From a virus (Duplodnaviria > Heunggongvirae > Uroviricota > Caudoviricetes), in the IMG/VR virus record IMGVR_UViG_2648501392_000020: DNA of 10,109 nt; one strand, given 5' to 3'. Shown here in pieces: positions 565 through 9,458 of the stretch; the stretch's first letter is position 1, and every line of letters starts with the position of its first letter. The position numbers and the translations under genes were made by a program. The notes under the pieces are model-generated. The model saw nothing but the letters and a program-made list of their open reading frames with translations, made no database searches and was not told the origin of the DNA.

Positions 565-782
565 GTTACATCCTCCCGCAATTAAGAGCGCGATATGATA
601 ACCAGACCGGGTCGGTCCAACAACGTATTACCCAAAATTCCAGTAATAAGTTCCAAATATTGCCGATATTTTAAGCAAAATGCTTATGCATGATTATTCA
701 TTCACGATATTTATAATTAAATGCGCATAACTTATTGAATTTAACCAACAAACATCGCTACAAATAACGTTAAAAATCGCAA

Positions 783-806
783 ATTAACTACACCATTAAC
801 TACACC
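783..806. repeat. Perfect tandem direct repeat, 2 x 12 bp (attaactacacc)
   Basis: Read directly: attaactacacc at 783-794 and again at 795-806, about 220 bp upstream of the smrA start. Confidence 0.5.
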
Positions 807-1297
807 GTTCGGTGCACTGTATGCAACAATGCGGAACAAATAGACACAAGCGACGGGCTATACCGTTATCATTTTCCGGCTATCCGCCATGAAGCTGGTG
901 GATGATCACGGATAAACCGTTATGGAAGTCCCCATATCGGCATCATGCCCACCAGCGAGATTAGTTATCTGGTTGCTGATGGGAGGCTGACGAACCTCGA
1001 TGCTAGGGTGCGCAAAACTAGTGAGACCTTTTTTCTCTGCAACAGGCCCATAATTCGCGTTTTCTTTGTCTGCCGTAAGGTGGGGGATTTTTGGCGGATC
1101 CAGCAATGGCGCGGATTTTGTGATTTTTTATAGATAGACCTCATCTATCAATCCCGTGCACACCTTCCCAAAAAAAGTTTTCGAACCTGCGGCGATGTGA
1201 ACAAGGGTAGGCGGGCGGTCCCATAAGCAATGAGGTGTAGGGATTTCTATCCCCCTGGGGGTATTAAACACCACCCGATTTAAATACCGTCTTTTTT

Positions 1298-1693: not shown

Positions 1694-2236
1694 TTACTCG
1701 CCTTTGTTCTGTAGCAACTTCTCAGGCGCGCTTCCGGTAGTTTCCATCAGGTAATCAGCCAGTATCTGTGGCAGGTTTTCGTCAAGTCTTGCACATGCGT
1801 TACATGCTTTGGCTATTTCCCTTTTTAGTTCATCCAGCATATACGGCCTTATATCGGGAAAGCGCCTTTGCATTGTGAGCGGGAGGCTGTCCATGATTGA
1901 TGAAATCTGACTCGCTAGTTTTGAGATCGCGTAGATGCAAAACTTTGTATCAATCACCTCGCCGCGTTCGCGCTCGTTTTTAAGTTCCTGCGCTTCCGCC
2001 TGGGCCGTCATTAATCTGATTCTTACGCGTAAAAGTTCATCATCATCAATCTCGCCTTTGTCGTTTGTAAGCTGGTTAATTGCATTGTTAACCCTATTGT
2101 CTATCACGCTAGCAACATCATAAAACGCCTCACGGCCTTTACGCTCAACGGGAGTTACTCCCCACTTGTCGAACGCTGTCGCACTTACGCGGCAGCTTTG
2201 CGCCATAGTTTTTTTGTTCATCAGGTGCGATTTCAT
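1694..2236 (-). CDS. Terminase small subunit, lambda Nu1-like
   Basis: Translation aligns with lambda Nu1 as I remember it (ours RLMTAQAEAQELKNERERGEVIDTKFCIYAISKLASQISSIMDSLPLTMQRRFPDI vs lambda RLTRAQADAQELKNARDSAEVVETAFCTFVLSRIAGEIASILDGLPLSVQRRFPEL). Start at ATG 2236 has a GTGGGG Shine-Dalgarno; alternative ATG at 2221 gives MNKKT, matching lambda MEVNKK. The cos site lies immediately upstream. Confidence 0.85.
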   Translation of the reverse strand: MKSHLMNKKTMAQSCRVSATAFDKWGVTPVERKGREAFYDVASVIDNRVNNAINQLTNDKGEIDDDELLRVRIRLMTAQAEAQELKNERERGEVIDTKFCIYAISKLASQISSIMDSLPLTMQRRFPDIRPYMLDELKREIAKACNACARLDENLPQILADYLMETTGSAPEKLLQNKGE

Positions 2237-2263
2237 CAATATCCCCACTTAGTTAAGGTTTCA

Positions 2264-2338
2264 GGTTGGTGTGTTGGTGTTATCTTTCCCTTTTTATTCA
2301 TAGAGATAGAGCGAAAAACAAAACCACCACCACCAACC
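2264..2338. repeat. cosB-like region: inverted GGTTGGTG / CACCAACC repeat blocks flanking an AT-rich spacer; candidate TerS-binding elements
   Basis: ggttggtgtgttggtg at 2264-2279 and accaccaccaccaacc at 2323-2338 on the plus strand, between cosN and the terS start. Differs from the lambda sequence at the equivalent position. Confidence 0.45.
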
Positions 2339-2369
2339 CGAAAAGGCTCATAAATAGCGAAAATCCGCA

Positions 2370-2381
2370 AGGTCGCCGCCC
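2370..2381 (-). other. cosN: lambda-type cohesive-end site (GGGCGGCGACCT on the minus strand) within cos region 2250-2437
   Basis: Minus strand reads GATCCGGCAGGCTACG-GGGCGGCGACCT-TGCGGATTTTCGCTATTTATGAGCCTTTT, near-identical to the lambda right end/left end junction as I remember it. Position upstream of the Nu1-like gene mirrors lambda cosN-cosB-Nu1. Confidence 0.85.
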
Positions 2382-2437
2382 CGTAGCCTGCCGGATCGCC
2401 GGAAAGGACCCGCCAGCCAGAACGGGCCCTAATTTCA

Positions 2438-2821
2438 TCAACCAATCAACTTATAGCGACCATCCCGTGCATTGCGACGTACACGCTCAATCTTGAGGCA
2501 TAGCGCCGCATCTGGCTTTTTGGGGACAGGTACGCGGCAATATTCAGAAGCTCGAGGAATATTGTTTATCCAGTCGATCACTTCACTTAAATACCAGGCC
2601 TTACGCCCTTCCGTAACCTGTACGCGTTCGGGGAACTCTCCACGAGCCTCAAGGTTTAGCAATGTGCGACGGCTAAGGGTAGTAAGTTCCATCACCTGAT
2701 TCATATCAACAAGGCGTTCACTTAAACGCCTTTTGTCAGCAATAGCCTTTAATTCCTCTACTGCTGGATCCGGATACATCATTTCGGCAATTGGCTTAAG
2801 GTCATTGTAATGATTCTGCAT
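2438..2821 (-). CDS. AlpA-family (MerR-like HTH, excisionase/regulator type) DNA-binding protein with about 40-aa N-terminal extension
   Basis: ATG at 2821 with AAGGGGGA Shine-Dalgarno, 11 nt after the gpD-like stop. HTH block ELTTLSRRTLLNLEARGEFPERVQVTEGRKAWYLSEVIDWI fits the AlpA/Phage_AlpA pattern. Confidence 0.7.
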   Translation of the reverse strand: MQNHYNDLKPIAEMMYPDPAVEELKAIADKRRLSERLVDMNQVMELTTLSRRTLLNLEARGEFPERVQVTEGRKAWYLSEVIDWINNIPRASEYCRVPVPKKPDAALCLKIERVRRNARDGRYKLIG

Positions 2822-2832
2822 TGCATCCCCCT

Positions 2833-3174
2833 TTACACACGAGCCAGCGGCTGAACAGAAATACCTGAGCCAACAAACGCGGCAACCTTTGCCGACAGTT
2901 CTCTTACAGACTCAGGCCAGTTCAGAGCATCAACATTTAAAACACCTGTCTTATAAACCTGTGCCTGTGTTTTTTTCGCTGTGTCGATTTGTACAGCGGA
3001 AACATAAACCGCTTTGCCTGCGCTCGTTCCATCCCATACCACTAGCGCACCAGTGGCATCTTCCTGCATCAGTGGCGTAAACGCAGGTATTACCCCTTTA
3101 TTGGCTGAAAATATCCCCAGCGTAGTAACCAGTGCTTCAGTGCCAGACATGAGTTCAGTGTAATGAGTAGCCAT
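2833..3174 (-). CDS. Head decoration protein, lambda gpD-like
   Basis: 113 aa. TPLMQEDATGALVVWDGTSAGKAVYVSAVQ...YKTGVLNVDALNWPE...AAFVGSGISV aligns with lambda gpD ([30 protein letters not shown]...YKSGTFRYEDVLWPE...TAFAGTAISIV). GGGGGAG Shine-Dalgarno, 9 nt after the capsid gene stop. Confidence 0.85.
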   Translation of the reverse strand: MATHYTELMSGTEALVTTLGIFSANKGVIPAFTPLMQEDATGALVVWDGTSAGKAVYVSAVQIDTAKKTQAQVYKTGVLNVDALNWPESVRELSAKVAAFVGSGISVQPLARV

Positions 3175-3183
3175 TGCTCCCCC

Positions 3184-4230
3184 TTAGCCAATGCGAACGG
3201 TAACAAAACGATTGATGCGGGCCGGTATTGGCTGTGGTGCTGAATGTGTCTGCACATATTCAATAGCCGGATCACCAGGCACAATATAGTTTTTCGGTGC
3301 AAGTTCGGCTTTAGTCAGCCCCATCCGAATTAGCTCCGGATCCTGAATACCGCCATAAGCGACAATCCCCTGAAGAGCCGTATTGCCAAGCACCATCAAA
3401 TCAGGATCAAGGAAATATTTTTCAGTTCCGTCCTCGTCGGTATAACGCCCGCTGTAAACAACAATCGCAACATCGCCCATATACCCTTTAAAACTCACCG
3501 AATCACCAAGGTCTTTAAGGGCCGTTTCCAGTTCGGAATTAGAACCTCGACGGGTATCCAGAGCCTCTTTTACAGCTCTGAATGAGCGGTATTTTTTCCA
3601 TACATTGCCGCCCATAATAATGATATTAGTGACTCCCTCACTAAATTCTGCGTAGCTCTCAATATCATCATTTGGGTCAAAAGATCCTTTATCCTTACCT
3701 GACCACTCAGCACCGCCAGACTGAGTGATGATATTTTGTGGTTTAATATTCCAGTCCAGCTCATAACGTTCAATACCATCGCCCACAATGATATTTTTCC
3801 CTGTTGTAATTGCCTGAACGGCAAGCCATTCAATACGTGCACGTATAGCTTTAGCCTGATTTACAATCGCCTGTTTAACTTTAATATTACGCGCCCCAAA
3901 AGCATTGTATTGCTCAGGTGATACACCAGCAGGGCGCACAGCTAGCTTATTTGGATCAATGCTGCTTTTCGGTTTCATATAGCCAGGGCGAATTGTTTTT
4001 GATTCGTATCCCTCATCTCGTGAAACTTTACTGCCCACCATAGGAGAGCAAAACGCCGCGATCGGGATATTTGGATCGTCGATCGTATCAAGAATAATGT
4101 CTCTCGATTCAAACATTACCGAGCGAGTGAAAAACAAACTGGTAAACAACGCATTTAATTTTTTTTGCACATCTTCAGCATTAGCCACCTGCACAAGCTG
4201 TGTAGGCGAATATAAATCAACCATACTCAT
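3184..4230 (-). CDS. Major capsid protein, lambda gpE family
   Basis: Long blocks align with lambda gpE (ITQSGGAEWSGKDK...DPNDDIESYA, RSFRAVKEALDTRRGSNSELETALKDLG, GDVAIVVYSG, MVLGNT). Start chosen at ATG 4230 (MSMVDLY, as lambda MSMYTT) with AAGAGG Shine-Dalgarno. The ORF track start at 4311 is an upstream extension. Confidence 0.9.
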   Translation of the reverse strand: MSMVDLYSPTQLVQVANAEDVQKKLNALFTSLFFTRSVMFESRDIILDTIDDPNIPIAAFCSPMVGSKVSRDEGYESKTIRPGYMKPKSSIDPNKLAVRPAGVSPEQYNAFGARNIKVKQAIVNQAKAIRARIEWLAVQAITTGKNIIVGDGIERYELDWNIKPQNIITQSGGAEWSGKDKGSFDPNDDIESYAEFSEGVTNIIIMGGNVWKKYRSFRAVKEALDTRRGSNSELETALKDLGDSVSFKGYMGDVAIVVYSGRYTDEDGTEKYFLDPDLMVLGNTALQGIVAYGGIQDPELIRMGLTKAELAPKNYIVPGDPAIEYVQTHSAPQPIPARINRFVTVRIG

Positions 4231-4396
4231 CCTCTTTACATTCATTACAAATAATTGTGAATATATTCTATTACCGATGTCTGCTATGCGAATACATGCA
4301 ACCAAGTGCAATGTTGTATAAAATCTGCCGTGACAACTTCAGTGCTGATAATTCGTGTTAATGTATTTACTTCCTTTGGTCGGGATTTATGTAGCA

Positions 4397-4440: not shown

Positions 4441-4863
4441 TTAAAACGGTATATTATCGCCGTACGGTTCATCATTCCCTGACTGTTGTTTTGCCCTGTT
4501 CAATGCGTCAGTGGCCTGGCCCTGTTGACCTTTTTTGCCGCCCGGTCGCGCCGTTCTGGCACTGATTACACTATCTGCGATAACCTGCCAGCCCTGCCGC
4601 GTTTCGCCGTTCTGGCCTGTCCACTGGCTCACCTGCATGTTACCCGCCACGCTCAGGAGTTCGCCTTTGTGGTGTTTTGCCAGTGCGTCGGCCTGTCTGC
4701 CAAACGCCAGGACAGATAACCACATCGTCGCCGTTCCGTCATCTGCCTGGCTGCACGGCAGGGGAACCGCCATACTCGCCATCGCCATTTGTGTCCCTTT
4801 GCTAGTGGTCTTTAACTGCGGGTCAGCCACCAGCCGCCCGTAAGCCGCTATCTGTGCTGTCAT
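4441..4863 (-). CDS. ssb: Single-stranded DNA-binding protein (SSB)
   Basis: 140 aa. OB-fold SSB pattern (GRLVADPQL...W..V.AFGRQA...KG..L.V.G......W....G..R) and C-terminal acidic tip ending DNIPF (canonical DDDIPF). GGAGAGGTGG Shine-Dalgarno. Confidence 0.85.
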   Translation of the reverse strand: MTAQIAAYGRLVADPQLKTTSKGTQMAMASMAVPLPCSQADDGTATMWLSVLAFGRQADALAKHHKGELLSVAGNMQVSQWTGQNGETRQGWQVIADSVISARTARPGGKKGQQGQATDALNRAKQQSGNDEPYGDNIPF

Positions 4864-5111
4864 GATTCCACCTCTCCGGTTTTAACGTTGATTGTTGTTA
4901 CCTGTTCCGCTTCGGCAATCTCCCGCTCTGTCAGCGTGGCAAAATTTGCCGCCGTCGTGGTCATGAATGCGCTTATCAGTTCGGGATGTGCTTTCGCGTA
5001 TCCTTCTCCGGCGTGGCGGTCTATCGTTCTGATTGCCACCTTTAAGGCGTGCTCTGTCATGTCTAATGCGCGATATTTTGGTGCTGTCTTATCTCTGGTT
5101 TTTCTGGTCAT
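4860..5111 (-). CDS. Hypothetical protein (about 83 aa); start uncertain
   Basis: ORF track frame 4860-5243 begins with GTG inside the iteron array and has no Shine-Dalgarno. Internal ATG at 5111 has AGGTGG upstream and leaves the iterons intergenic. Stop overlaps the ssb start (ATGA). Confidence 0.45.
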   Translation of the reverse strand: MTRKTRDKTAPKYRALDMTEHALKVAIRTIDRHAGEGYAKAHPELISAFMTTTAANFATLTEREIAEAEQVTTINVKTGEVES

Positions 5112-5113
5112 GC

Positions 5114-5325
5114 GCCCACCTGTGCCCACTTTTTCTACCCACTTTTCATGGTTTCCCACTTCGTCCCACCTGGGATTTTGTGGTTTTATATCGTACTGTT
5201 TCATAAGAATTTTTTTAGTGCCCACTTTTTGGGATGTATACACGTGGGAAAGTGGGCGATTTTGTTAAATTCCAGTTAAATTACCCACTATTCCCACTTT
5301 TAACGCCCACTTTTTACAGTGGGTG
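5114..5325. repeat. Iteron cluster (CCCACT(TTT), at least 9 direct and 3 inverted copies); probable island replication origin
   Basis: cccac(t/c) at 5115, 5125, 5138, 5155, 5165, 5221, 5284, 5293 and 5306; inverted agtggg/gtggga at 5244, 5251 and 5318. Lies immediately 3' of the helicase-initiator gene. Confidence 0.7.
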
Positions 5326-6720
5326 AACATCATCCCCATCGACGCAAATCACGCCGTCTTTTTCCAGTTTGGCTAACCATCGTTTAAGGTGTTTTGTGTC
5401 ATATCCCAGCTTTTTCATGTCATCACGTAGCAGCGGGATCGTGCATTTATCACCATGCTGTATACGTGACCGGATACAACCCCATAAAGCCGTGTGATTT
5501 TCCGTCTTGTTCCCGGCCTCCTCTATGCGCTCCAGTTCAGCAGGGGCGCGGGGAACGTCAATCACCACCATGGACACGATTTCTTCACCCTCAGGATCCG
5601 TAAATACCTCCACGCTCTTAAGGTCGTAGGCGCTTTCTTTTGGCTCCTCCGCGTCCTTCATCTTCTTACATGCTGCAACCAGCGCCGTAGCCTCTGAATG
5701 TTCCCGACTGATTCGGAACTCAGCATCAAGCGCCGCACGGAATGCACTGGAACCCCGCGCCCCTTTCGTCTCATCCTTGCCGGAATGATGCACAACCAGA
5801 ACCGTGGCCCCCGTGGCCTGCTTTATCGCGTCACACCCCTGGATAAACGCCCCCATGTCGCGGGAGTCATTTTCATCATGACCACCAAAGCAACGGGCCA
5901 GCGTGTCAATGACAATCATCCGCACCCTTTCGCCCGTTCTGTCCTGCACTAATCCGGCGGTCCTGATAACCTGCTCCACATAGTCAGGCGATGCAGGGAA
6001 GACAGGCGCGTTAACGATGCACAAATCCGTAACCACCTTGTCGTGGGTTATCTCCCACGCCTTAACGCGGCGTTTTACGCCCATACTGCCTTCGCCAGCG
6101 ATATAGATAACCGCGCCCTTACTTACCCTGCGGCCTCCCCATGCCATACCTGTGGCAACATGACACGACCAGGAAATAGCCAGGAACGATTTATAAGAAC
6201 CGCTGGCCCCGTAGGTGCTGCATAATGATTCAGCCGGAATAAGCCCCTTAATTACGTAGCTTTGCTGCGCGTCGAATCCCTCAGAACCCCATGAGATGGG
6301 AAGTGTGATTTTTCGCTTTCCGCCATTCATGACCAGACTTTCCCCGCGTTCCCAGGTTTCTTTAAGTCGGGGTAGTTGCTCGCTCCAGTCCTCCAGTAGT
6401 TCGAAATTCTCTGAAAGTAACCGCGCTTCCCGGACACCTGCGATCGCCAGTTTGGTGGCAATGGTCAGCATCTGCATATCGTCCAGGTTTCCGGCGCGTA
6501 TGACCTTTGCTCTGTATCGTCCTTCATCAACAATCTGTAAATTGTCCAGTTCGCTTAACTGATAACGGCCCAGGTAAACCGGAGGGATGGGATCGCCTGC
6601 TTTTTTGGCCTGTGCAATCATGTAATGTTCTGCAAAGGAGTGAGCATTATCACCCGCAAAAATAACCGCCTCAGTGTGTTTATCTTTCGGTAACAGTTTT
6701 ACGTTCGGTGCCAGTTTCAT
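5314..6720 (-). CDS. RecA-fold replicative helicase / replication initiator (RepA/DnaB-like, AAA_25-type) with C-terminal winged-helix-like domain
   Basis: 468 aa. Walker A GASGSYKS, Walker B-like MIVIDTL, HHSGKD motif. C-terminal basic helical segment (LLRDDMKKLGYDTKHLKRWLAKLEKDG) adjacent to the iterons. AGGGG Shine-Dalgarno. Confidence 0.85.
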   Translation of the reverse strand: MKLAPNVKLLPKDKHTEAVIFAGDNAHSFAEHYMIAQAKKAGDPIPPVYLGRYQLSELDNLQIVDEGRYRAKVIRAGNLDDMQMLTIATKLAIAGVREARLLSENFELLEDWSEQLPRLKETWERGESLVMNGGKRKITLPISWGSEGFDAQQSYVIKGLIPAESLCSTYGASGSYKSFLAISWSCHVATGMAWGGRRVSKGAVIYIAGEGSMGVKRRVKAWEITHDKVVTDLCIVNAPVFPASPDYVEQVIRTAGLVQDRTGERVRMIVIDTLARCFGGHDENDSRDMGAFIQGCDAIKQATGATVLVVHHSGKDETKGARGSSAFRAALDAEFRISREHSEATALVAACKKMKDAEEPKESAYDLKSVEVFTDPEGEEIVSMVVIDVPRAPAELERIEEAGNKTENHTALWGCIRSRIQHGDKCTIPLLRDDMKKLGYDTKHLKRWLAKLEKDGVICVDGDDVHPL

Positions 6721-7021: not shown

Positions 7022-7255
7022 TTATTCTCCGGTGTGCTGTTCTTTATATCTGTCGTGCAATAGATCTATTTCTTGCAGTTCCATTATTACAGGCTCAAGA
7101 AGCGTTATTAATGCTGTGGCAATTCTTGATTTTTGTTTGTCGCGTTCATTGTCGCCAAGTGTTTCAAGCCATATGCGTAATATTTCCATCATGCTTTCAC
7201 TGTGAGAAAGTGCAAGAAATGCGCGGTCTATTGTTTCGAGGTAAATATCACGCAT
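7022..7255 (-). CDS. Hypothetical protein, 77 aa
   Basis: ATG at 7255 preceded by GGTGGGG. The ORF track start at 7267 is GTG. 5-nt gap to the next gene. Confidence 0.5.
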   Translation of the reverse strand: MRDIYLETIDRAFLALSHSESMMEILRIWLETLGDNERDKQKSRIATALITLLEPVIMELQEIDLLHDRYKEQHTGE

Positions 7256-7836: not shown

Positions 7837-8053
7837 GGTGCACCTCCTGCACATCAGCCATGATAATTTTTCCGGCCTTATCCAGTGCCTGATCGGCTTT
7901 TAGCTGCACAAATGCTAAATAATGGAAGATGCATTCTGATTCTCTGGCTGCGTGTTTATGCGCCCTGTCAGCAATAACAGAAATATCAATAAGCGCGTGC
8001 ATCAGCGTAGTGAGCGCGGCGGCTGCTGCGTCCGGTGTGGTTTTATTGCACAT
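7829..8053 (-). CDS. Hypothetical protein, 74 aa
   Basis: ATG at 8053 with GGGGGTAGG upstream. Overlaps neighbours at both ends as part of the coupled operon. Confidence 0.5.
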   Translation of the reverse strand: MCNKTTPDAAAAALTTLMHALIDISVIADRAHKHAARESECIFHYLAFVQLKADQALDKAGKIIMADVQEVHHA

Positions 8054-8249
8054 GGCCTACCCCCTGGCGAATACGGGCAGCGAATACCATCACGCAGCCA
8101 TCAGGAGATTGCTGACGCGCTTCCTGTTCGCTGGTGGCCTCAATGGTAATCACGCGCGGTTGTGCCGTGCTCAGGGCGATAAAACGCCAGATGTATTTAT
8201 TCAGGTTGTACGAGTCCCGCCCTTGCGGGTGTGTGGTATGATTTAACAT
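8043..8249 (-). CDS. Hypothetical protein, 68 aa; first gene of the leftward operon (shares frame with the tail of the 471-codon ORF)
   Basis: Internal ATG at 8249 with GAGGT Shine-Dalgarno 5 nt upstream, about 100 nt downstream of a TTGACA-N17-TAAAGT promoter-like element. Confidence 0.4.
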   Translation of the reverse strand: MLNHTTHPQGRDSYNLNKYIWRFIALSTAQPRVITIEATSEQEARQQSPDGCVMVFAARIRQGVGHVQ

Positions 8250-8347
8250 AGCTACCTCGATACTTTCGCTATCGTTGGTGGTTAGAAGCCCCGTTACTGC
8301 TCCTACAGTGCGGGGTTTCGTCGTTTCTGCACCTTGCATTAACAAGG

Positions 8348-8424
8348 TGTAAGTAACTTTATTTATAGGTGGCTTACATGTCAATGCTTTTATGTAAGAC
8401 TTTTTATGTGTATATTGTCTTACA
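8348..8424. promoter_or_regulatory. Divergent promoter/operator region: leftward promoter (-35 TTGACA 8379-8384, -10 TAAAGT 8356-8361 on minus strand) overlapped by four CTTACA/TGTAAG half-sites
   Basis: Half-sites tgtaag 8348-8353, cttaca 8373-8378, tgtaag 8393-8398, cttaca 8419-8424. Central palindrome CTTACA-N14-TGTAAG covers the -35. A TATATT -10-like hexamer at 8411-8416 faces the plus-strand gene. Confidence 0.5.
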
Positions 8425-8445
8425 CTTTCATTGAGAGGATTACAG

Positions 8446-8751
8446 ATGGCTACAGGTTCAAAAAACGCAAAATCACAATCACTGACAGCTCGGATCCCGC
8501 ATGATGTTATTGAAGGCATGGAATCCGTAAAACTGGACGGTGAAAGCAACGCCGGATTCATCGTAACCGCCATGCGCGGTGAAATCGCCCGCCGCCAGGC
8601 AGAAGGAAGCGGAGAAAACCTCCTGGTTTCTTCGCTCGATGCACTGGCGCAGGTGGAAAAAATCGGAGTCAAAGCAGCCGAGGAGATCGGGCAACTCATC
8701 ACCGTCGCGCGTGAAGAACTCCAGCGTCGCAAGGCCAAAGAGCAGGAGTAA
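8446..8751 (+). CDS. Ribbon-helix-helix-like small DNA-binding protein (candidate island regulator/repressor), 101 aa
   Basis: ATG at 8446 with GAGAGGA Shine-Dalgarno. N-terminal SLTARIPHDVIEGMESVKL...NAGFIVTAMRGEIARRQ fits a strand-helix-helix pattern; the C-terminal half is charged and helical. Composition is clearly more protein-like than the antisense frame. Confidence 0.6.
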   Translation: MATGSKNAKSQSLTARIPHDVIEGMESVKLDGESNAGFIVTAMRGEIARRQAEGSGENLLVSSLDALAQVEKIGVKAAEEIGQLITVAREELQRRKAKEQE

Positions 8752-8808
8752 CCATCACCAGCGCCGTGGTGTGAGTAACTACGGCGCATTGCTATGCAGG
8801 ACAACACA

Positions 8809-8982
8809 ATGACCGATAAAGAATTGACCAAAACATTATCACCGACACGGAAAAGACGGCGCAGAAAGATAGAGCATGAATCAGAAAGATTCGCGCCATG
8901 TGCTTTTGCCCTTGAGCAATTTCTTAAAGAGTACAGGGAAAAGCGCTCATTGCAGGTATGGCAACGAACTGAACCAGACTGA
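8809..8982 (+). CDS. Small basic hypothetical protein (about 57 aa)
   Basis: ATG at 8809 (alternative 8794) with weak AGGA upstream. Lies between the RHH gene and the plus-strand terminator. Lys/Arg/Glu-rich composition. Confidence 0.35.
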   Translation: MTDKELTKTLSPTRKRRRRKIEHESERFAPCAFALEQFLKEYREKRSLQVWQRTEPD

Positions 8983-9061
8983 TTGCATTGCCCACCAGCC
9001 GCAAATGTGGCATTGTTGGCGATGCTCATGCGTTGGGGATAACGTGTAGCTTGTGTCGAGG

Positions 9062-9090
9062 GGCCACCGTAGCGGGTGGCCTTTGTTTTG
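9062..9090 (+). terminator. Intrinsic terminator for the plus-strand RHH operon
   Basis: GGCCACC (9062-9068), loop gtagcg, GGTGGCC (9075-9081), then TTTGTTTTG (9082-9090). Confidence 0.6.
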
Positions 9091-9458
9091 CCTGTTATCC
9101 GGCAATTGTGGCGCTTCGCCACACGGTTGATATAATCCCACTGCTCAGATTCATTTTTTGCGCAGTAGGTTAATTGTTCACAAAGGCGCTCCGGCAACGG
9201 GGCGCTTTTTGTTTTTATTAGTTTGTAGAAACCTGACTCAGAGATAATGCTCATATTCTGATTGCCGTCAGGGGTGTAAGTTAAATTTACTCCCTTTTTA
9301 TCATCAAACATCTGCAACGCTCTGGCGTTAACAATATTGGTTTCACTCCCGCCAGTAAGGCCGGAAATAACCGGAATAATTTCGGCAAAATTTTGCAGAT
9401 TCTGTTTTTCAGGACGAACGAAGCCCCGCCCTTGTTCGGGAGAATATCCAGTATTCAT
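9084..9458 (-). CDS. Bro-N / antirepressor-like ORF, 5' protein-like portion only; the frame stays open to 8043, so the 3' end is undefined
   Basis: ATG at 9458. Segment GNQNMSIISESGFYKLIKTKSAPLPERL resembles the Bro-N core (ISESGLY.LI.RS..P.A). No plus-strand ORF competes in 9180-9458. Downstream, the same frame has Ser/Cys/Arg-rich antisense-like composition. Confidence 0.4.

Follow-up and report, generated by a model that had tools for sequence, protein, structure and literature searches.

[quoted passage not shown]

The dense array of short repeats that lies immediately 3' of a helicase gene in the 10,109-bp window (the whole stretch of viral DNA analysed here) is very probably the replication origin of a phage-inducible chromosomal island (PICI), with the 468-aa helicase, Rep, acting as both its initiator and its helicase. 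The original prediction had proposed a probable origin from array and helicase together, and this proposal was strengthened by a match to the published layout of PICI origins and by the co-variation of iteron and predicted winged helix over approximately 34 loci. A further proposal, towards which the comparative data lean slightly, is that residue 444 of this self-loading helicase with a RecA-fold (SF4-type) motor reads one base of the iteron (His for G, Asn for A and Ser for C), and that replicon specificity diversifies among PICIs through exchange of a cassette of approximately 420 bp comprising winged helix and origin. Because PICI origins of this kind and the island type itself are both on record, the novelty is modest and the finding largely ordinary. 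New are the comparative evidence over approximately 34 loci, i.e. the joint core switch, the cassette swap and the RecA-fold motor, and a one-residue, one-base specificity rule that appears to become visible from natural variation.

The window is an E. coli PICI, i.e. a phage satellite. Its genes run on one strand in the order AlpA, small genes, DUF4222, helicase, array, 83-aa gene and SSB, continuing with a lambda-E-like capsid, a decoration protein, a second AlpA, a Nu1-like TerS and the host gene smrA, and an integrase is situated just past the window end, as seen in a 99.9% identical RefSeq E. coli locus (L001). A 26-bp direct repeat, AATTAACTACACCATTAACTACACCG, present at window 782-807 and again beyond int (L001 15459), bounds an element of 10.56 kb. 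The features by which Gram-negative PICIs are recognised are accordingly present: integrase, AlpA, unidirectional genes, a length of approximately 10 kb, att repeats and an incomplete set of phage genes. Relative to the att core given for EcCIDI14 in Table S1 of Fillol-Salom et al. 2018 (PMC6092414), the att repeat reads as the reverse complement, and EcCIDI14 shares the integrase as well, with a RepA-family helicase and identically placed GTGGG iterons. The lysR-smrA att core of EcCIEC2733.1 was considered and rejected, as it is absent from the window, where the true repeat matches the EcCIDI14 core. The island lies here between abgR and smrA and not beside an IS110 element. Lambda-type head genes (gpE-like capsid, gpD-like decoration and Nu1-like TerS) extend over window 1694-4311 with the second AlpA-family gene among them, as in EcCICFT073. 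The 471-aa ORF at 8043-9458 (- strand) is probably no gene, RefSeq annotating its last 207 nt only (Icd-like), and a YlcI/YnfO gene lies inside it on the opposite strand. Matches to rep together with the origin region occur in 1,326 of 5,426 complete genomes and matches to the origin segment in 641, with up to five matching places seen per genome, and the array marks the likely replication start of a widespread E. coli satellite.

The clustering of the repeats is real and non-random. Counting both strands, CCCAC occurs 24 times in the window, and 12 of these copies fall inside 5115-5323, i.e. within 209 of 10,109 bp, such that chance clustering could be ruled out (binomial P = 1.3e-14). Nine of the 12 are on the + strand, starting at 5115, 5125, 5138, 5155, 5165, 5221, 5284, 5293 and 5306, and three are on the - strand, at 5244-5248, 5252-5256 and 5319-5323. 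The exact hexamer CCCACT was observed 13 times across the whole window against 3.5 expected, with 13 or more in 0 of 200 shuffles; nine of the 13 are in the array region (seven direct and two inverted), and the remaining array copies read CCCACC (n = 2) and CCCACG (n = 1). The nine direct and three inverted copies originally reported are consequently correct for the CCCAC core and not for exact CCCACT, and the inverted copies hold at 5244-5248 and 5252-5256 and not at 5319-5323, which is coding and does not co-vary. This last look-alike is present in L008, which has GTGAG iterons, and missing in L003 and L004, which have GTGGG iterons; it follows the Pro-Leu-stop codons rather than the iteron class and is therefore probably coincidental. 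On the gene strand the iteron unit is (A)AAAGTGGG, approximately 9 bp long with a GTGGG core, in 11 co-varying copies. The array was also correctly placed by the earlier reading between the helicase stop and the next gene start, the RefSeq annotation agreeing on both the stop at 5314-5316 and the ATG at 5111 (Table 1).

Table 1. Features of the replication region and associated genes, in window coordinates
Feature	Coordinates	Strand	Remarks
rep, 468-aa RepA-family initiator-helicase (probable)	5314..6720	-	From ORF list; stop codon 5314-5316
Winged-helix coding region (predicted), residues 404-468	5317..5511	-	Predicted recognition helix 445-454
His444 codon (CAC), candidate specificity residue	5389..5391	-	N-terminal end of recognition helix
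CCCAC look-alike in rep coding sequence (His-Pro-Leu-stop)	5319..5323	+	Probably no iteron
Rep-proximal iteron set, three direct (A)AAAGTGGG copies	5284..5314	-	Cores 5306-5310, 5293-5297, 5284-5288
Two opposite-orientation iterons	5244..5256	+	GTGGG on + strand, 5244-5248 and 5252-5256
8-bp palindrome TGTATACA	5235..5242	.	Between inverted iterons and following direct iteron
Single direct iteron AAAAAGTGGG (gene strand)	5221..5230	-	Faces inverted pair across palindrome
AT-rich spacer, candidate DNA-unwinding element	5170..5220	.	GC 0.25-0.33 in 40-bp windows
Distal iteron set, five direct	5115..5169	-	Cores 5165-5169, 5155-5159, 5138-5142, 5125-5129, 5115-5119
83-aa gene (phrog_1231)	4860..5111	-	PHROG match; RefSeq CDS identical; 3' boundary of swapped cassette
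SSB, satellite-encoded	4441..4863	-	Pfam SSB, E 1.6e-15; syntenic in EcCICFT073 and EcCIDI14
Nu1-family TerS	1694-2248		Belongs to one-strand gene set
Iteron variant sequences			AAAAGTGGG (window type), AAAAGTGAG, AAGTGCGGCA

The array occupies 5112-5313, immediately 3' of rep, with its first iteron touching the rep stop codon, and in gene direction it is composed of three direct iterons, two inverted iterons, the TGTATACA palindrome, one direct iteron, an AT-rich spacer of approximately 50 bp and five direct iterons. Start-to-start spacing is 9-17 bp inside both flanking sets, the distal set running from 5165 in steps of 10, 17, 13 and 10 bp. The AT-rich spacer is flanked by five distal and six proximal copies; the main orientation is equal in both sets, and the inverted copies (5244-5256) occur only on the rep-proximal side. 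A spacer of comparable length separates the iteron sets in all relatives. Positions in the rep-proximal set are likewise kept, with all copies changed from G to A in Asn444 loci, all distal copies co-vary, and the inverted pair co-varies as well, reading CTCACtttCTCAC in GTGAG-class loci. The palindrome is conserved as (C)TGTATA(C/T)A independently of iteron class in most of 29 loci, across genera, and might serve as the place where melting begins, or be bound by a host factor or by a conserved part of Rep. A LexA box was considered at the same place, where CTGTATA(T/C)A has the likeness of a half-site, and rejected because the CTG-N10-CAG spacing is absent from every locus. Neither DnaA boxes (at most one mismatch) nor IHF sites were found in 5100-5330, an Rfam scan of the window returned no structured RNA match, and the one terminator-like hairpin in the region is weak, on the non-coding strand and at chance level.

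The rep product is named 'helicase RepA family protein' in RefSeq and divides into an N-terminal alpha/beta domain (approximately residues 10-125), a RecA-fold ATPase domain (approximately 146-390) and a C-terminal winged helix (approximately 404-468). The ATPase domain has a Walker A motif, GASGSYKS, around K177 and matches Pfam AAA_25 over residues 146-317 (E 6e-43), and the PDB profile match of Rep is to RSF1010 RepA (1g8y, E 2.3e-4). Structure comparison of the Rep model by Foldseek gave 1nlf with a probability of 1.00, and the whole model gave RecA-fold matches only (RepA, Rad51/RadA, T7 gp4, KaiC and DnaB). Profile and model matches both indicate that the motor is RecA-fold and RSF1010 RepA-like, not SF3 or SF6 AAA+, although the ATPase part of the full-length AF2 model is poor (pLDDT below 50 over much of 131-396) because the alignment is shallow. 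The C-terminus had been taken for a winged-helix DNA-binding domain from the start, and this assignment gained support from its structural neighbours, which include winged helices such as those of MCM, RPA32 and cullins, and from its co-variation with the iterons. The N-terminal domain folds confidently in the model and has no Pfam match; residues 1-132 (window 6325-6720) are 59% identical to the N-terminus of DUF927-domain proteins of Klebsiella plasmids (H82-H84). As this domain is common to Rep and the DUF927-domain proteins, it seems to form a module of its own that can be joined to more than one kind of helicase motor. There is no recognisable primase domain in Rep, and a literature search on this type of Rep and on DUF4222 found nothing on an origin.

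To relate iteron sequence to protein sequence, approximately 34 related loci from E. coli to Oceanospirillales were compared. A first set consisted of seven E. coli relatives (L003-L009) with 69-85% origin identity, and a scan of one genome per species yielded 26 further loci, in hosts including Citrobacter, Xenorhabdus, Pantoea, Kluyvera, Kosakonia, Rosenbergiella and Oceanospirillaceae. Among the E. coli relatives the layout is kept position by position and the core switches in all copies together, being GTGGG in the window and L003-L006 and GTGAG in L007-L009, and directly after the invariant Lys443 every GTGGG locus of this E. coli set has His and every GTGAG locus Asn. Over the full comparison the core is GTGGG, GTGAG, GTGCGG or GTGGT. 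The co-variation set itself numbered 29, i.e. eight E. coli loci (window included) and 21 of the 26 scan loci, with GTGGG iterons in 13, GTGAG in seven, GTGCGGCA in eight and GTGGTGA in one. In this set the His444 column was the sole perfect predictor of the fourth iteron base out of approximately 340 alignment columns (His with G in 14/14, Asn with A in 7/7 and Ser with C in 8/8), with 1.51 of 1.69 possible bits of mutual information, and the runner-up columns (442, 450, 459 and 440) all fall in the C-terminal domain, 440-468.

The iteron class could also be forecast from protein sequence, and the forecast held in five further loci (L036-L038, EcCIDI14 and a Klebsiella record). EcCIDI14 Rep has His at the 444 position with GTGGG iterons, and the 'RKSF' Rep of the 17-kb circular Klebsiella record has GTGCGGCA iterons, both as forecast; P0014, whose Rep is 93% identical to that of the window and carries Asn444, and P0029, also Asn444, have nine copies of GTGAG each, again as forecast. 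A 'GRKGF' variant of Rep is accompanied by the iteron GTGCGC, likewise in agreement with the forecast. On each of three Rep backbones (96-99% identity across residues 1-400), both His and Asn forms occur with matching iterons, and phylogenetic inertia is therefore not the explanation; in the closest His/Asn pairs, H444N is the sole recurring substitution. By this comparison the iteron and the C-terminal winged helix of Rep form a matched pair, which points to recognition of one by the other, and the co-variation alone proves neither a contact between residue 444 and base 4 nor initiation as opposed to, for example, autoregulation. The Klebsiella record (L040; CP018459.1, K. pneumoniae pKp_Goe_795-4, circular, 16,971 bp) was deposited as a plasmid and encodes an integrase, a Rep relative with GTGCGGCA iterons past its stop, a capsid, a head-tail adaptor, a terminase and a tape-measure protein. 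It has the appearance of a satellite that forms capsids, captured in circular form, rather than of a plasmid, and its circularity is suggestive only as regards autonomous rep-ori replication.

Exchange of the recognition module is apparent when the window is aligned to L036 in 60-bp steps. Identity is 95-100% in the 5' part of rep (approximately 6714-5995), 82-92% over 5994-5515 and 52-73% over 5514-5095, returning to about 90-100% downstream of 5094 across the 83-aa gene and SSB. The block of low identity, 5514-5095, coincides with the winged-helix coding region and the origin, a pattern indicating that the two swap as one cassette. Candidate specificity factors encoded on either side were excluded: the window (GTGGG) and L036 (GTGAG) encode 83-aa proteins with 99% identity, and one identical DUF4222 protein (WP_000770163.1) accompanies both GTGGG and GTGAG arrays, so neither is the specificity factor. 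In L006 and L008, moreover, other genes stand in place of the 83-aa gene and the array is still there.

The arrangement closely resembles origins already described. According to PMC6092414, the origin of Gram-negative PICIs is the region immediately 3' of the initiator gene and consists of two iteron sets around an AT-rich region. The same source reports autonomy of rep plus ori for EcCICFT073, SaPIbov1, SaPI1 and EfCIV583, and in it EcCICFT073 is the only E. coli PICI with a functional test: its rep-ori, which has an initiator of a different family, keeps a temperature-sensitive plasmid at the restrictive temperature, and deletion of rep or ori impairs this (PMC6092414). From these precedents and the sequence we infer that the rep-ori pair of the window would replicate autonomously. 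EcCICFT073 has the gene order int, alpA, ..., DUF4222, rep, ori, small gene, ssb, capsid, decoration in common with the window, and its origin is likewise directly 3' of rep with short iterons in two sets around an AT-rich stretch, at least 12 TCTACC copies, in both orientations, occupying the syntenic slot that has the initiator on one side and the small gene with SSB on the other. However, EcCICFT073 pairs a 584-aa primase-family initiator with TCTACC, whereas the window pairs a 468-aa RepA/AAA_25 protein with AAAAGTGGG iterons, so that in the same slot initiator and iteron change together and the neighbours stay homologous. SaPI Rep loads itself as a helicase and uses its C-terminal winged helix to read iterons of 5-6 nt just past rep; every Rep is specific for its own origin, Rep1 and PriRep5 having been studied by cryo-EM (PMC9371898). 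The C-terminal winged helix, the 6-12 iterons directly downstream of rep and the AT-rich centre of SaPIs (PMC9371898) all have counterparts in the window, where 11 short-core iterons lie directly 3' of rep in two sets flanking an AT-rich region and a specificity-setting C-terminal winged helix is predicted computationally. The SaPI origin is described, in ambiguous wording, as having at least two iterons per AT-rich side that point oppositely (PMC9371898); in the window, inverted copies are on one spacer side only and the class-independent TGTATACA palindrome is present. SaPI Rep motors are AAA+ (SF3 or SF6/MCM-like) and that of the window is RecA-fold RepA/SF4-type; the Rep of the window would work like SaPI Rep but lies outside the SF3/SF6 AAA+ protein family.

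Other replicons share parts of this design. RSF1010/IncQ RepA (1g8y, 1nlf) is homologous to the Rep of the window in the ATPase domain, and only that domain is common. IncQ RepA is a bare helicase of approximately 280 aa, the IncQ origin with its iterons of approximately 20 bp being recognised by a separate protein, RepC, and RepB' priming at ssi sites. In comparison, the Rep of the window has an extra N-terminal domain and a C-terminal winged helix, its iterons are approximately 9 bp, and the genes around it include no RepC or RepB' homologue, so that the window does not qualify as an IncQ system. The alpha protein of satellite P4 is likewise an initiator-helicase with a C-terminal winged helix, which binds short repeated octamers at the origin; it resembles the Rep of the window in functional design without a sequence relationship, combines a primase with an SF3 helicase, and uses an origin that depends on a further cluster of repeats some distance away (crr). 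Classical iteron plasmids (pPS10, R6K and RK2) have a WH1-WH2 Rep without an ATPase, iterons of 17-22 bp and DnaA boxes, and host DnaB is loaded through DnaA/DnaC; the window differs from them in its ATPase motor, its iterons of approximately 9 bp and the absence of a DnaA box.

Three other explanations of the array were weighed against the origin reading. The position directly upstream of the next gene, with the last copy on the ribosome-binding position, would also suit operator sites at which AlpA, the DUF4222 protein or the 83-aa protein, as a transcription regulator, controls the downstream SSB, capsid and packaging operon, and in SaPIs the operon past the origin is separately regulated. 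A sigma-70-like promoter was, however, not found in 4900-5500, the iteron class tracks the C-terminal domain of Rep and not its neighbours (83-aa, DUF4222), and the array outlasts replacement of the downstream gene, leaving operator sites very improbable as the main function. A cos- or pac-type packaging signal bound by the Nu1-like TerS of the island is to be regarded as extremely improbable: although the island does encode a TerS of the Nu1 family, and lambda cosB contains repeated Nu1-binding elements, the array adjoins rep at a distance of approximately 3 kb from terS, varies in step with the C-terminal domain of Rep, and stays beside rep in relatives whose packaging modules are quite different, as with the ClpP-capsid fusion in L003 and L007, or in L008, which has ProQ/PerC and no terS nearby.

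It could also be that the array is an origin and that its iterons are bound by some other host or island factor, with the winged helix of Rep serving protein contacts or the handling of single-stranded DNA, as might be suspected from structural neighbours that include non-sequence-specific winged helices (MCM, RPA32 and cullins). We consider there to be little chance of this, since residue 444 and the iteron base correspond one to one, both on near-identical backbones and across genera, and this correspondence and the joint cassette exchange are hard to explain without direct recognition.

If the array is indeed a PICI origin read by Rep, several Rep subunits would use their winged helices to bind the phased iterons, which are spaced by 9-17 bp, on either side of the spacer, and the AT-rich spacer, the TATA-centred palindrome between facing iterons, or both, would melt, the site being a guess. 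The RecA-fold ATPase domains would then close as a hexameric ring on the single-stranded DNA, assembling without DnaA or a separate loader, and unwind it, with a 5'-3' polarity if Rep behaves like RSF1010 RepA. The satellite's own SSB, encoded two genes downstream and likely to be an accessory of the replication module, would coat the strands, and host primase and polymerase would carry out synthesis. Distinct iteron/winged-helix classes would in this mechanism be non-cross-reacting replicons, allowing several PICIs to coexist in one cell. Mutually compatible origin classes, with several islands replicating in the same cell, would offer a rationale for the compatibility of co-resident satellites, and the pairing would, if true, amount to a simple, re-programmable initiator/origin code and add a third motor class to the design of a helicase with its own origin reader.

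Two further elements of the region were observed. A CATTACTGG box is found in the spacer between the iteron sets of most non-E. coli relatives (L010-L032) and also in the EcCICFT073 origin (L002, approximately 7188-7200), where it is inside an inverted repeat, CATTACTGGC...GCCAGTAAGG; the window lacks this box, and its spacer instead has CTTATGAAACA in common with other E. coli loci. At the distal end of the array, the last iteron (AGGTGGG, window 5112-5121) stops 3 nt short of the start codon (ATG) for the 83-aa protein and is the sole Shine-Dalgarno-like sequence there, at the ribosome-binding position, and in other classes the iteron itself ends in GGAG. Occupancy of this iteron by Rep might therefore change expression of the downstream genes, and Rep binding at the array may have a secondary regulatory effect.
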